Below, piece after piece: positions 3,871 through 20,075 of a stretch of DNA of 27,482 nt. Each line of letters begins with the position of its first letter. The stretch's first letter is position 1. The stretch covers positions 1 through 27,482 of the IMG/VR virus record IMGVR_UViG_3300027808_000130; one strand, written 5' to 3'. Both the position numbers and the translations under genes were made by a program. Under the pieces are notes generated by a model. The model was not told the DNA's origin and did no database searches. It saw only the letters and a list, made by a program, of their open reading frames with translations. This stretch comes from a virus (taxonomy: Duplodnaviria; Caudoviricetes).

Positions 3871-4251
3871 TTAAGAATTTGTAATCTCTACCCAATTAAC
3901 TATTTCTTCATTCCATACAAAGAATTTACCTTCTTCATTTGGAACTTCTATTGGTGCTTTCCAATCACATATTTCTTCATTAAAAAGAAAAGATGGGAAA
4001 GGCTGAGGAGGAATAAAAGCATCTTTGCTTTCATCGTATGTATATCCTAATCCAGCATAATTTATTCTGAATGGAGTACCGCCTAATTTGTGTACTCCGT
4101 GGAAAGTATTATATGAAGTTCTTTTAGCTCCATAATATACTTCCCAATTATAAGGATTTCCGTTTTCATCAAGTACTATTTCATCTTCGTCTTTTCCAAC
4201 GAACATATCTACTACTATGTTATTTTCATCTAATACTGCGTAATGTGCCAT
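3871..4251 (-). CDS. Phage protein of MAH(Y/F)A type, possible fibre assembly partner
   Basis: 126 aa; MAHYA...RTSYN...PFRINYAGLGYTYD...DAFIPPQPFPS...W.AP pattern, which I recall beside Gly-rich-domain genes in aquatic phages. Confidence 0.65.
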   Translation of the reverse strand: MAHYAVLDENNIVVDMFVGKDEDEIVLDENGNPYNWEVYYGAKRTSYNTFHGVHKLGGTPFRINYAGLGYTYDESKDAFIPPQPFPSFLFNEEICDWKAPIEVPNEEGKFFVWNEEIVNWVEITNS

Positions 4252-10971: not shown

Positions 10972-11058
10972 CTACATAGCTATCCAATATACTAATAGGA
11001 TTGCTATCCCATATACTATTCCTAATACTAATAGGTCTTTGTTATTATTCTTTTTCAA
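10972..11058 (-). CDS. Possible 28 aa single-pass membrane peptide (not in ORF track)
   Basis: TTG start, MKKNNNKDLLVLGIVYGIAILLVYWIAM; overlaps the upstream stop. Confidence 0.4.
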   Translation of the reverse strand: MKKNNNKDLLVLGIVYGIAILLVYWIAM

Positions 11059-11602
11059 TAAAGGGATTGTTAAGTGTTTCTCTTAAATGCATCTTAGCTT
11101 TCTTAACATTAGTAAAGGAGGTTGATTTACATATTTTAATTTCATTAGATAGTTTTTCCAATGTCATATTAGGAGTAAACCAATATATTTGTGCTAACTT
11201 ACTTGCTGGCCAGTTACGGCTTCTTTCCATATTCTTTAATTCAGCTACTACTTCATTATATGATTCTTCTAGCTTTACATCCCACTCCTCATCATATTCT
11301 GTATCTACTCTATTATCAATTGGATTTTCCGCTTGGTATTTAATCTTCTTATCTCTCTTAATCTTATTTAGGAATCTACTCTTTACAAACGAGTAACAAT
11401 ACATTACGTTGAATGATTTACCCCACCATATATGAGGTCTTACCTTCTCACCTAAATACACATATAAATCTCCAACTAAATCATTAGCCGTTTCTTTATT
11501 CTTTACAATATTAAAAGTTGCTGAGCAAAGCCATAAATGCGATTCTCTATAAAGAACTTCTAATCTTTTATTATTTTCTATTTCTAATTTTGATAATGGC
11601 AT
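11045..11602 (-). CDS. ECF/sigma-70-like factor
   Basis: 185 aa; region-2-like ETANDLVGDLYVYL and a C-terminal HTH, MTLEKLSNEIKICKSTSFTNVKKAK. Confidence 0.6.
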   Translation of the reverse strand: MPLSKLEIENNKRLEVLYRESHLWLCSATFNIVKNKETANDLVGDLYVYLGEKVRPHIWWGKSFNVMYCYSFVKSRFLNKIKRDKKIKYQAENPIDNRVDTEYDEEWDVKLEESYNEVVAELKNMERSRNWPASKLAQIYWFTPNMTLEKLSNEIKICKSTSFTNVKKAKMHLRETLNNPFIEKE

Positions 11603-12489: not shown

Positions 12490-12687
12490 TTATAATTTTA
12501 TTCCATTACATTGTCCATCATAGGACTTATTAGTTAATCTATTTAACCATTGTTTTCGTTCACAACAACCACATGATTTGTATCCTAATAAATCTATTGC
12601 TATCCATTCTGACAATCTTTGTCCCCAACCTAAAGTAAATAAATCTATTATCCATTCTAACCAAGTTCCAATTTGTATTTTATGCAT
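12490..12687 (-). CDS. Hypothetical protein with CGCCERK-x2-LN motif
   Basis: 65 aa; overlaps the end of the HNH gene. Confidence 0.7.
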   Translation of the reverse strand: MHKIQIGTWLEWIIDLFTLGWGQRLSEWIAIDLLGYKSCGCCERKQWLNRLTNKSYDGQCNGIKL

Positions 12688-13057
12688 TTCTATTTGGTTT
12701 AGTTATTGTATGATAATGAGTAACGTTTTGTTGTCTTGTCATATACTCTAAGTTATCAGGGTTATTATTATGTTTATCACCATCTTTGTGGTTTACTTCT
12801 AATCCTTTTGGTATCTTACCTAAAAAGGTTTGAGCTATTAAACGATGCCCTCTCCTCCATAATCTTTGTTTGTTAGGTCCTTTACCTACGAATAATCCAT
12901 AGTATAAATACCCTGATGGATGTGTACGTGGTTTAAGTACTCTTAAATCACCATTAGGATTGTACCTAGGTGATATCTTTGTTGTGTAGATTAATCCATC
13001 ACTACCAGCATAATAGTCAGGTAATCCGTTTAAATCTTTAATTTCAATCTTTGCCAT
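12680..13057 (-). CDS. HNH endonuclease (HNH_3 type)
   Basis: HRLIAQTF...EVNHKDGDKHNNNPDNLEYMTRQQNVTH. Confidence 0.9.
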   Translation of the reverse strand: MAKIEIKDLNGLPDYYAGSDGLIYTTKISPRYNPNGDLRVLKPRTHPSGYLYYGLFVGKGPNKQRLWRRGHRLIAQTFLGKIPKGLEVNHKDGDKHNNNPDNLEYMTRQQNVTHYHTITKPNRNA

Positions 13058-13093: not shown

Positions 13094-13108
13094 CGTTTTA
13101 GTTTAAAT

Positions 13109-13141
13109 AAAAAAAGGGAGCCATAAATGACAATGACTCCC
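13109..13141 (-). terminator. Intrinsic terminator
   Basis: GGGAGTCAT/ATGGCTCCC stem followed by a T7 tract. Confidence 0.75.
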
Positions 13142-13201
13142 TATTGTATAGGATAATAGTTCCGGAAAATCCAAATTTTGGCAAATTAAAAAACCGGAAC
13201 T
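13109..13201 (-). ncRNA. Candidate structured 3' RNA: large-loop hairpin plus terminator
   Basis: Perfect 8-bp stem AGTTCCGG/CCGGAACT with AATTTGCCA in the loop; same layout as 18670..18748. Confidence 0.4.
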
Positions 13202-13237
13202 GATTATAAGTATAAAACTATGTAACATATTATTATC

Positions 13238-13388: not shown

Positions 13389-13937
13389 TTATTTCTTTTT
13401 AGTTGCTGTGTTATTAATTAAATCTATTGTATATGTTTCACCAAATAGTTTTTCTATCTCTCTTTCTTTAACTTCTCTTTCAATTGGGTCTAAATCATAC
13501 TTGCTTCCAAAATGATTATTAATCCATTTATTCATATCAAGTGTCAGTTTATTCTTTGAATCATTCTGAGCTTTAGCTTGCATCTTTGCTTTTTCTGCAT
13601 AAGCATCATTCTCATTACTTTTTATATCATCAAGGCGAGTCACATCATTAAACAAATCATCAAAAGCATCCTTTATCTCTATATCTGATAGAATACTTGT
13701 TTCAAATTTATTTTTAACGCTTTCCAAATATTCATCTGTAATATTATAGTCATTACCCATTACGTTCCTCAAATATTCATCACTATTTGAATTTATATAC
13801 TGCTGAATGTATTGTTGGATATCTAATGCCATATCAGCTGCATCCTCTATATCTAATTCAATAGATGTTTCAGTTTTAGTTACTATTGTTAGTACAATCT
13901 TATCACCCTCTTTTTTTACATAGAATTCGTTTGCCAT
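13389..13937 (-). CDS. Hypothetical acidic protein
   Basis: 182 aa ORF with its own promoter and A-rich leader. Confidence 0.75.
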   Translation of the reverse strand: MANEFYVKKEGDKIVLTIVTKTETSIELDIEDAADMALDIQQYIQQYINSNSDEYLRNVMGNDYNITDEYLESVKNKFETSILSDIEIKDAFDDLFNDVTRLDDIKSNENDAYAEKAKMQAKAQNDSKNKLTLDMNKWINNHFGSKYDLDPIEREVKEREIEKLFGETYTIDLINNTATKKK

Positions 13938-13958: not shown

Positions 13959-13990
13959 TAAAGATACGAAATAAATCTCAAACTACCTAC
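13959..13990 (-). promoter_or_regulatory. Bacteroidota-type promoter (-7 TATCTTTA, weak -33)
   Basis: 7/8 match to TAnnTTTG, upstream of ATG 13937. Confidence 0.55.
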
Positions 13991-14508
13991 TAATTTCTTA
14001 TATAATTTAATATATCTTCTTGAGAAAGATTTGAATTAAAAATATCAGCAAATGAAGTAGCACTGTTACCTGGTATACTGTTAATCTTTTCTTGTATATT
14101 CTTTTTTAATATTATCTTTTCTTCTTCTTTCTTTTCTTTAGATACAGGTTCTCCACCTGCCGATAATCTACCTGCGGTTAATCCACCATCGGATAATCTA
14201 TCAGTAATAAGGTAATGATAATTAAATCTACCTAATGCAGCTCTCTCTTTTATTACTTTAATATATCCATAATCAACACACTCTTTCCATACTCTATTGA
14301 ATTTAACTCTATTCATATTAAGAGCTCTTTGTACTTGACCTTTGTATATAATCCAATTTTCAGGTAAAGAAATAATAAACATAACCAAAGCCCTAGCTTC
14401 TAAAGTTAGTTTAGTATTTTGAATTAATTCGTTTGAAATAGGTGTGAAGTTGTGTTTAGAAGTATTAACACTTCTTATAATCTTAGTTGTGTTTTGTTGT
14501 GTTGCCAT
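13990..14508 (-). CDS. Replication initiator-like HTH protein
   Basis: NFTPISNELIQNTKLTLEARALV..IISLPENW...GYI resembles replisome-organiser N-termini; internal DNA repeats. Confidence 0.65.
   Translation of the reverse strand: MATQQNTTKIIRSVNTSKHNFTPISNELIQNTKLTLEARALVMFIISLPENWIIYKGQVQRALNMNRVKFNRVWKECVDYGYIKVIKERAALGRFNYHYLITDRLSDGGLTAGRLSAGGEPVSKEKKEEEKIILKKNIQEKINSIPGNSATSFADIFNSNLSQEDILNYIRN
14153..14210. repeat. 15-bp tandem repeats (putative iterons)
   Basis: CCACCTGCCGATAAT, CTACCTGCGGTTAAT, CCACCATCGGATAAT plus a partial fourth copy. Confidence 0.6.
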
Positions 14509-14535: not shown

Positions 14536-14568
14536 TATAAATACTAAGTAGTTTTTGCAAACACCAAA
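14536..14568 (-). promoter_or_regulatory. Putative promoter AAACTACTTAG-TATTTATA with upstream TTTG
   Basis: Shared with 13076..13093; upstream of the rep-like ATG. Confidence 0.5.
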
Positions 14569-15705: not shown

Positions 15706-15884
15706 TAAGTTGAAGAATACCCTCAACCCTTATATACATAAAGATACTACAAAAACTACTAACCACCAAATATTTAAGTAACTATTTTTCATATATTTTT
15801 ATTTATAATACATAAAACGTTGATAATCAATAAACTATTTTCTAAGTCATTGATTATCAACGAGTTACATATTAGCCCCTTTTT
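15706..15884 (-). promoter_or_regulatory. Early cassette copy 1: two palindromes, host-type promoter, leader hairpin
   Basis: TTGATWATCAA at 15820 and 15850; TTTG(15767-70)-N20-TATCTTTA(15739-46); hairpin 15709-15727. Confidence 0.75.
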
Positions 15885-15932
15885 AACCCTTTTTAGAGGG
15901 TCTAATCCCTTTTGAGGTATTATCCCTACCCA

Positions 15933-15960
15933 AACAAAAAACCCCCATTTAAGGGGGTCT
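15933..15960 (-). terminator. Intrinsic terminator
   Basis: ACCCCC-TTAAAT-GGGGGT followed by a T tract, after the 254 aa gene. Confidence 0.75.
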
Positions 15961-17274: not shown

Positions 17275-17296
17275 GTTTTTTTGTTTTATTTGTTTG

Positions 17297-17462
17297 AGTT
17301 GAAGAATACCTTTAACCCTTATTTACATAAAGATACTACAAAACTACTAAACTACCAAACATTTAAATAACTATTTTTGGTTGCTTCTGCTAACGTGTTG
17401 ATACTCAATAAACTATTTTCTAACGTGTTGATAATCAACGTAATACATATTAGCCCCTTTTT
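17297..17462 (-). promoter_or_regulatory. Early cassette copy 2
   Basis: Palindrome cores at 17398 and 17428; TTTG(17356-59)-N20-TATCTTTA(17328-35); hairpin 17298-17316. Confidence 0.75.
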
Positions 17463-17536
17463 AGGGGATTTGAGAGGGTTAAAGGATACAATAAGGGAAA
17501 AGCTTACCATACCCAATAACCTCTCAGGAAGCCCCC

Positions 17537-17695
17537 TTAAATTGAGTTTAATAGGTTAAGTTGGTGCTCCAACCACTTTAATCTAAACATAGATACTTTC
17601 CAATTTTCACTATCTACGTGTAGTTTTACAATCTGCTTGTAGGTTTTATCTATCTCTTTACGAAGATATGATTTAAGTTGATACATACTGTTCAT
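17537..17695 (-). CDS. Hypothetical 52 aa protein (not in ORF track)
   Basis: MNSMYQLKSYLRKEIDKTYKQIVKLHVDSENWKVSMFRLKWLEHQLNLLNSI. Confidence 0.7.
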   Translation of the reverse strand: MNSMYQLKSYLRKEIDKTYKQIVKLHVDSENWKVSMFRLKWLEHQLNLLNSI

Positions 17696-18472: not shown

Positions 18473-18688
18473 ATGGCAAATTTAAACAAAACAATTGAAG
18501 AATTACTACAAAACTATTCTCTTACAGAATTAGTAGAATTATCTCCAGAATTTAGAAAATCAATATTTGATGCTAATAAAGCAGATATTATGAAATGGTT
18601 TGGAATATCTCTATCAGATGCTACCAAAATTAAAAATCATGCTACTACTTGTTTAGCAGACATGGAAATAAAAAAGACCCTCAATTAG
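18473..18688 (+). CDS. Small helical protein, possible helix-hairpin-helix
   Basis: 71 aa with a perfect -7 box upstream; DIMKWFGISLSDATKIK. Confidence 0.65.
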   Translation: MANLNKTIEELLQNYSLTELVELSPEFRKSIFDANKADIMKWFGISLSDATKIKNHATTCLADMEIKKTLN

Positions 18689-18696
18689 AGGGTCTT
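18670..18696 (-). terminator. Intrinsic terminator between convergent genes
   Basis: 9-bp stem AAGACCCTC/GAGGGTCTT with a T tract on the minus strand. Confidence 0.8.
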
Positions 18697-18748
18697 ATAG
18701 GGGATAGGAAATATATAAATGGCAATTTAGAATAGATAAATCCCCTAT
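18670..18748 (-). ncRNA. Candidate structured 3' RNA with anti-start-codon loop
   Basis: Stem ATAGGGGAT/ATCCCCTAT; loop contains AATTGCCATTTATATATT; abuts the terminator. Confidence 0.45.
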
Positions 18749-18753
18749 TTAGT

Positions 18754-19074
18754 TTAATCTTTTATAGGTACACAATTTGGTACTTCTCTACCATCTAGTG
18801 TCTTAGTTCCAATTTGTTCGTACCCATCCCAGCATGGACCATCTTCCCCTTCAGGTGCTAAATTTATTCCTTCGTATTTTTTATCAAAGTTTAATTTAGA
18901 TTGTACTCTACTTTGTAAATCTGAAAACTTTTGTTTACTAAGTTCTTTTCTTTCATAAGTAGAAATACAAATGGCCACTGCTTGGTCTTGTTCATACTCA
19001 CCTTTAATTTCACTCATACAACGCCCCACATAATCGTTTTGGGTTTCTGCTGCAGTTGGTTTTGGTATTGGCAT
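18754..19074 (-). CDS. Small two-motif phage protein
   Basis: MPIPKP...RCM...QAVAIC and CWDGYEQIG...VPNCVP motifs. Confidence 0.75.
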   Translation of the reverse strand: MPIPKPTAAETQNDYVGRCMSEIKGEYEQDQAVAICISTYERKELSKQKFSDLQSRVQSKLNFDKKYEGINLAPEGEDGPCWDGYEQIGTKTLDGREVPNCVPIKD

Positions 19075-19127
19075 ATTATTTGGTATTTTTATAATTTTTT
19101 CCTAGCTTGTCTAAATTAGGAATTAAT

Positions 19128-19211: not shown

Positions 19212-20075
19212 ATGCCAAAGAAAAAGAATCCATCTAATAATTACTTCCATTCGGGTGTGGAAGAAGCGATTCAATTATATAATAAAGCAGAAACTCAAGA
19301 AGAAAGAGATAGGTTATTTCGTATAATCTACCCAGCTATCTATAAAATTTCTGAAGTAATGTATAATAAAATTAAACCAACTTATATTGAAGGTGAGTCA
19401 TTAGAAATTATGATGGATTGTACTTGCTATCTTACTGAAAGATTACATAGAATTAGAGAAGGTAAAGGTAAAGCATTTAGTTATTTCACAATATGTGCTA
19501 AAAACTATTATATATTTCACAATCAGAAAGCATATAAGGAAATACAAAAAACTCTTAAGTTAGATGTATTAAATGAAAATTGGGATATAGCTGATATAGA
19601 TACAGGTAGAGTAGAACAAATGGAACAATCAGCTAAATTACTATCCGCATTCGTAGATTATATAGATGAGAATAAGGAAAGGTTTATTAATACTAAGAAA
19701 GGAAATATAGTAGTAGCTGCGGTTATTGATTTATTACGTGATGTGGATTCTATTAAAGATTTCAATCGTAGAAATATAATGAATGACTTAACTGAAATAA
19801 ATGGATATACAGTTGATAGACATTATATCACAAAAGTATTTAATAGATTACAAATGCACTTTGGGGTATTTAGTAGGGAATGGATTAAAACAGGTAAAGC
19901 AATTCCTTTTTGGGAGAAAGATAGATTAACTGCAGAAGAAGTAAAATTTTGTATAGAAAATTACACACCAAATAAAGGTGGACTTAGTATTGTTGGATTA
20001 TCTAAAAAGTTCCATGTAGAGGAATATACAATAAGAAAAGAATTATATACAGTTGGTTTAGCCGCTTATATTTAA
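19212..20075 (+). CDS. Sigma-factor-like protein (287 aa)
   Basis: Region-2-like GKAFSYFTICAKNY and a C-terminal HTH, LSIVGLSKKFHVEEYTIRKEL; start moved to ATG 19212, downstream of the promoter. Confidence 0.5.
   Translation: MPKKKNPSNNYFHSGVEEAIQLYNKAETQEERDRLFRIIYPAIYKISEVMYNKIKPTYIEGESLEIMMDCTCYLTERLHRIREGKGKAFSYFTICAKNYYIFHNQKAYKEIQKTLKLDVLNENWDIADIDTGRVEQMEQSAKLLSAFVDYIDENKERFINTKKGNIVVAAVIDLLRDVDSIKDFNRRNIMNDLTEINGYTVDRHYITKVFNRLQMHFGVFSREWIKTGKAIPFWEKDRLTAEEVKFCIENYTPNKGGLSIVGLSKKFHVEEYTIRKELYTVGLAAYI

Follow-up and report, generated by a model that had tools for sequence, protein, structure and literature searches.

A conserved, terminator-linked phage hairpin with an anti-AUG-GCA loop: a candidate multi-copy antisense RNA

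The window, i.e., the whole stretch of 27,482 nucleotides analysed here, belongs to a phage record that is about 84% complete and holds terminase, head protease, tape measure, tail fibre, HNH and replication-initiator-like genes. Bacteroidota start translation without Shine-Dalgarno pairing, and TAnnTTTG is a promoter-like consensus of this phylum. The leaders in the window are A-rich and devoid of Shine-Dalgarno motifs, and the top cultured matches of the terminase are Flavobacterium phages, at only 37% identity. Given these leaders and matches, together with promoter-like TAnnTTTG boxes, the host is probably a member of the Bacteroidota. A genome scan for the host returned two contigs, in Cyanobium and Ruminiclostridium bins, neither of which is Bacteroidota. 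According to the accessible part of PMC6847099, translation in Flavobacterium relies on an unstructured, A-rich start region.

The features of the element, of its sister site (site B) and of the neighbouring genes are as follows.

12680..13057, minus strand: HNH endonuclease gene, start AUGGCAA; candidate target of the window-copy RNA and of the sister RNA
13108..13204, minus strand: sister RNA (site B), before the endonuclease gene
13201-13158, minus strand: site B hairpin with a UUUGCCA loop
13142-13115, minus strand: site B terminator, loop UUGUCAUU
13205..13212, minus strand: box TACTTATA before the sister RNA, putatively promoter-like; similar boxes at 14543 and 13083
13389..13937, minus strand: gene with start AAUAUAAU-AUGGCAA; candidate target, 13 bp with one bulge
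13990..14508, minus strand: replication-initiator-like gene, start AUGGCAA; candidate target
18473..18688, plus strand: convergent gene of 71 aa, start AAAAUGGCAAAUUUA; candidate target, 13 bp with one bulge
18670..18696, minus strand: intrinsic-terminator-like hairpin (18696-18674) and U run, overlapping the stop of the convergent gene 18473-18688
18697..18748, minus strand: outer hairpin P1, 9-bp stem and 34-nt loop (from the fold; covariation in 6/6 modelled pairs)
18748-18740 and 18705-18697, minus strand: P1 arms, AUAGGGGAU and AUCCCCUAU
18739-18706, minus strand: P1 loop of 34 nt, containing AAUUGCCAUUUAUAUAUU
18716..18729, minus strand: inner AU helix presenting UGCC (fold prediction)
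18725-18718, minus strand: anti-start core UUGCCAUU, complementary to AUG-GCA starts
18754..19074, minus strand: conserved phage gene of 106 aa, function unassigned; the element sits in its 3' UTR

The element lies on the minus strand, 5 nt past the stop of gene 18754-19074, and the terminator-like hairpin with its U run follows directly. Its fold has -28.1 kcal/mol (z = -4.82), a stability that none of 200 shuffles reaches. Fold and coordinates agree with the preliminary description of a 9-bp stem and 34-nt loop linked to a terminator, and everything that this description states about the sequence itself holds. The terminator has the GC hairpin followed by a U run that characterizes intrinsic terminators, and 7/8 of its pairs covary. 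In the fold prediction the P1 loop is partly closed by a 5-bp AU helix (UAAAU/AUUUA), only UGCC being unpaired (0.99), and CAUUU is mostly paired. Of seven RNA runs listed, four were analysed, all as contigs; these span 18754-19080, one of them extending to 18721 and thus covering 33 nt on either side of the stop of gene 18754-19074; strand, ends and level are unreadable from contigs and DNA carry-over is possible, and these contigs are not counted as support for expression of the element as a discrete RNA.

On the plus strand, the ATG said to head no real gene lies at 18719 and indeed reads M-A-I-stop. With its good leader and early stop in the window, it could be taken for a ribosome-trap minigene reached by read-through from gene 18473. 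This is hardly credible, as the mini-frame is not preserved (there is a one-base difference between L010 and L022), the opposite transcript terminates before reaching the minigene in three genomes (G001, G004 and G005), and TGGCA, the reverse complement of TGCCA, occurs in 0/93 clustered pre-terminator regions, where 2.3 are expected. The same three genomes have back-to-back terminators, each strand with its own UGYCA loop. These paired terminators and the unkept mini-frame indicate that the UGCCA (minus) strand is likely the working one.

Relatives of the upstream gene 18754-19074 were found in 394 and 576 confirmed stretches, of which 80 were kept from each (160 loci). A terminator lies 20-125 nt behind the upstream-gene family in 29 of these loci, in 19 distinct forms; in 96 loci the script detected no terminator at this distance. 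Among the 19 distinct terminators right behind the family, TGCCA is present in 17 and TGGCA in none; a strong stem encloses the loop in 11, versus 2.4% in shuffles. TGCCA is present in 29 of the 93 clustered non-coding pre-terminator regions (mean of 2.7 and maximum of 7 in 300 shuffles), of which by eye at most six may be true opposite-strand gene starts. CAT, counted over all terminator loops, is not enriched (8 versus 7.5). Loops of the UGCCA type occur in 27 of 31 whole or near-whole related phage records, for a total of 40 loops; five doubtful loops were removed and two window loops added for the analysis of arms and partners.

Variable stems around a conserved UGCCAU loop had been proposed as the pattern to look for in related phages, and this pattern is what the relatives present: TGCCATT is invariant in 15/15 aligned close relatives, and stem sequences differ wholly between relatives, with compensatory changes and UGCCA retained. 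In an alignment that was fitted to the model, each of the six modelled P1 pairs shows two-sided changes and 82.4% of P1 cells are paired; scored over the whole structure, covariation exceeds 500/500 shuffles and 6/6 slides. A plain terminator stabilised by a hairpin before it, with a loop that is a copied start region without present function, would agree with the clear terminator and with the fact that no specific target of the window copy was found. Nonetheless, an invariant loop core between rewritten stems is the opposite of what a stability hairpin predicts, and we regard this explanation as very unlikely.

The covariance model, built on 15 copies, yielded 35 matches, all within family loci and 0/23 in outside loci; the model is narrow, missing many family copies, and has no match in Flavobacterium phage Fpv5. 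An exact-pattern scan returned at least 120 stretches and, among the matches listed, 10 are family elements by eye. Of 34 model hits, 18 have a TA-rich box immediately before them, a raw count without control. The window copy has no such box and is therefore taken to be a 3' UTR.

L001-L008, which are closest by protein (88% for the upstream one), carry CCUGCCAGCG, without CAU. In the CCUGCCAG form of the closest relatives, a GC helix still bears the UGCCA hexaloop, while CAU and U-rich arms are absent; no extended complement or partner was found for it in 15 records, and it is poorly explained by the antisense reading. This form, and the predicted open stretch consisting of UGCC alone, would suit a protein-binding or decoy loop whose likeness to AUG-GCA is incidental at the window site. 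Against such a fixed motif, the family variants UGUCAU, UGCUAU, UUCCAU, AGCCAU and UGCCGU keep start pairing, several of them with matching partner changes; a protein-binding or decoy loop is judged distinctly unlikely. As a separate observation, in L001 (5917-5996), L002-L008, L015, L016 and L019 the element is replaced by a nested helix that displays CCUGCCAGCG or CCUGUCAGCU and lacks both CAU and U-rich arms.

AUGGCA is the commonest start in the family, heading 148 of the 1096 genes predicted. It also heads structural genes, the tape measure gene among them (18/30); an antisense RNA would affect these too, which counts against the antisense reading. In the window, the five AUGGCAA starts described initially (13057, 13937, 14508, 17274 and 18473) are present, three of them with AAUAUA leaders, and AUGGCA starts also occur at 4251 and 24275. 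The best partners of the loop among the 38 window starts are 13057 (-12.5), 13937 (-12.4), 14508 (-12.2), 18473 (-12.0) and 24275 (-12.0 kcal/mol). Hence, as loop targets, four of the five named genes are among the best, while 17274 falls outside the top ten. Before unfolding is taken into account, these weak duplexes reach about -12 kcal/mol. The best-partner score of the window copy is equalled by 7/150 full shuffles and by 56/150 arm-only shuffles, which indicates that the core carries the pairing signal and that the arms add nothing measurable. Scored on starts, loop arms presented 4.81 versus 4.64 ± 0.18 for shuffled arms, and 4.95 versus 4.93 ± 0.08; the share of U opposite position -3 is only 43%.

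Window-site loops do not fit the starts of their own record better than those of other records (p = 0.58, n = 23; p = 0.20, n = 17), and the genome-wide mean rank of loops on their own starts is 0.53 (n = 40). No cis target for the window copy was found by duplex energy (among the results listed), by anchored scoring or by the site-restricted test, and no same-strand gene follows within 500 nt of the element. Given that the upstream gene 18754-19074 starts with AUGCCA and ranks 16/37 as a partner, self-pairing is excluded; the upstream gene is the best partner of only 3/33 loops. Next to changing neighbour genes, the loop remains the same (L080/L235, L246, L247 and the window). A constant loop, changing neighbours and no tuning to own starts fit an anti-AUGGCA RNA that is generic and acts in trans; phage and host targets both fit.

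The same antisense chemistry could be directed, by the window copy, mainly at host AUGGCA mRNAs, either as broad damping or against one gene. The constant loop and the lack of own-start tuning agree with this, as do Bacteroides sRNAs, which act next to start codons in the accessible part of PMC11697453, yet the sister-site loops track phage genes, and on balance a mainly host-directed window copy is unlikely. One fixed host gene was dropped as a target because the third codon that such a target would need is not constant (I, V, F, K, T, E, L). Three other ideas were also dropped: a mimic of the initiator-tRNA anticodon, given that U and not a purine follows CAU, kissing with the tRNA-Ala anticodon, and an rRNA mimic.

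Site B lies between the replication genes and the endonuclease gene (HNH or homing endonuclease). The covariance model built on the window element retrieves counterparts, in relatives, of the site at window positions 13108-13204 with E values of 0.002-0.02, which bears out the repeated design that had been suggested from the element at 13109. In newly fetched loci, the core is present in 42/50 terminator/next-gene units, versus eight with its reverse complement. At site B, terminator loops match the start that follows them better than they match swapped ones, both in the earlier set (8.12 versus 6.80, n = 13, p = 0.0002 by permutation) and among terminators new to the set (8.24 versus 7.04 ± 0.39, n = 11, p = 0.002), with the scoring rule written after the listings had been seen (i.e., not blind), relatives that are not independent, and one new row (L378) nearly identical to an old one (L060). 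Examples of loop/start pairs changed on both sides are UGCCAUGUUU/AAACAUGGCA (G020), UUGUCAUACU/AGUAUGAUAA (L398), UAGCCAUUU/AAAUGGCUA (L060), UUGCUAUU/AAUAGCAA (G012 and L377) and UUCCAUUU/AAAUGGA (G026). For pre-terminator loops, the type of the window copy, co-variation is weaker (p = 0.11 for the 12 new loci and p = 0.01 for the 24 old ones), and pooling all terminator/next-gene units gives p = 0.17 (n = 75).

Because site-B terminator loops co-vary with the start of the next gene, start-codon pairing is supported. The initial proposal of a 3'-derived RNA that blocks start codons is thus partly supported, as regards start pairing through site B, but not as regards a specific target for the window copy (p = 0.58). 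The joint change of loop and neighbouring gene start in sister copies suggests that the family is likely a translation-blocking RNA.

Further observations were made at site B. In six copies (G012, G026, L377, L380, L386 and L350) the pairing partner of the loop is an AUG-like word that precedes the called start by about 9 nt; these words are AUAGCAA, AUGGAUA, AUGGCAC and AAGGCAC, the upstream AUG being lost in some with pairing retained. In G008, G012, G013, G014, G016 and G028, a second upstream hairpin shows AGCAUU or GGCAUU, complementary to AAUGCU/AAUGCC starts. The HNH gene of G015 has no site-B RNA, and a long inverted repeat covers the promoter region just upstream of its AUGGCA start. 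G021 (L333:876-2248) has two near-identical endonuclease genes, head to head. A TAYTTATA box (minus strand; 14543, 13212 and 13083) stands before each of three features, namely the replication gene, the sister RNA and the HNH gene, and may be a phage promoter; genome-wide, the box is not enriched (36 sense and 51 antisense of 1096).

The phage element is real, uncatalogued and multi-copy. Neither the window nor eight loci contain anything that reaches an Rfam gathering score; the weak hits are at chance level, the best being Trp_leader (30 bits versus a cut-off of 41). The c4 RNA of phages P1/P7 is a loop-displayed antisense against phage translation starts. It is entered as an antisense RNA in a table of PMC2864571, and c4 (RF01695) has no match here at gathering score or at E values up to 5-10. 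Like c4, the present family is a phage-encoded structured RNA with its antisense shown in a loop; unlike c4, it is a simple hairpin plus terminator, with an anti-AUG-GCA seed, several copies per genome and no Rfam match. As for the c4-type pairing of a loop with a phage gene start, site-B loops fit their own start and the window copy does not (p = 0.58).

In the accessible part of PMC11697453, the FopS/GibS sRNAs of Bacteroides are multi-copy, terminator-ended, with one copy reported in a phage, and act next to the start codon to block translation; they use a single-stranded 5' stretch as seed, target susC mRNAs of the host, and bind RbpB. As far as that part describes them, the present family is similarly multi-copy and terminator-ended and is predicted to block translation at starts, but its seed lies inside a closed loop with a covarying stem and not in a single-stranded 5' stretch; neither Rfam nor sequence matches link FopS/GibS to the element. 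By analogy, the element would resemble c4-type and FopS-type antisense RNAs in action, while the traits compared place it outside both groups.

Two further systems were compared on the accessible portions of their sources. In T4, an RBS-sequestering hairpin limits translation of homing endonuclease genes, which have their own promoter (PMC2988022). Similarly, the gene after site B is an HNH or homing endonuclease gene, but its pairing partner is a loop 50-110 nt upstream, across a terminator and with no SD, and the window copy has neither an endonuclease neighbour nor an adjacent hairpin to be read through. In icaR of Staphylococcus aureus, a 3'UTR motif pairs with the initiation region in the 5'UTR (PMC3868564); the 3' UTR motif here is likewise complementary to an initiation region, but not to that of its own mRNA, by the ranks given above for the upstream gene in the window (16/37) and across loops (3/33). 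In the literature searched, we found no RNA control of translation described for Bacteroidota phages, nor this RNA; supplements may hold undeposited motifs.

On the established structure, strand, conservation, stem covariation, complementarity and site-B loop/start co-variation, we favour, with some reserve, a conserved hairpin and terminator that form a 3'-end antisense RNA damping early and middle phage genes that start with AUGGCA. Its partners would be AUGGCA(A) starts within the phage itself, those of the HNH endonuclease, the replication initiator and neighbouring early and middle genes, and pairing would likely lower their translation. The open UGCC would nucleate on GGCA, after which the weak inner helix would open and CAUUU(AUAU) would zip over the AUG and the A-rich leader, which serves Bacteroidota ribosomes instead of a Shine-Dalgarno sequence. 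The window copy may be made as the 3' UTR or processed end of a late transcript and may act in trans on several mRNAs, while relatives with the upstream TA-rich box would make the element as a stand-alone small RNA. A bolder and rather doubtful extension has anti-AUG RNAs forming a modular set, equivalent in an SD-less setting to anti-Shine-Dalgarno control, in which gene-specific copies track the start of the neighbouring endonuclease and the late-operon copy is a generic anti-AUGGCA RNA shutting early phage genes and host AUGGCA mRNAs together.

The family gives natural seed/target pairs with compensatory changes, directly testable in Flavobacterium reporters. If confirmed, an antisense RNA would recognise a start site through the AUG and second codon alone, and a compact repressor scaffold would be suggested for Bacteroidota genetics.

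Some minor observations concern other parts of the window. The orphan gene 18473-18688 (plus strand), for which no relatives were found in viral contigs, has a promoter-like box TATCTTTG; in the Atlas, weak leads (0.82) point to clusters of HhH and RNA polymerase alpha-CTD. The unannotated proteins at 19212-20075 (plus) and 11045-11602 (minus), which by eye resemble sigma factors, have no Pfam or PHROG matches. At 15740-15960 and 17290-17540 a promoter/leader block occurs twice (GTAGTATCTTTATGT at 15747 and 17336), with repeated GTTGAT(A/T)ATCAAC palindromes that may be an operator or origin.
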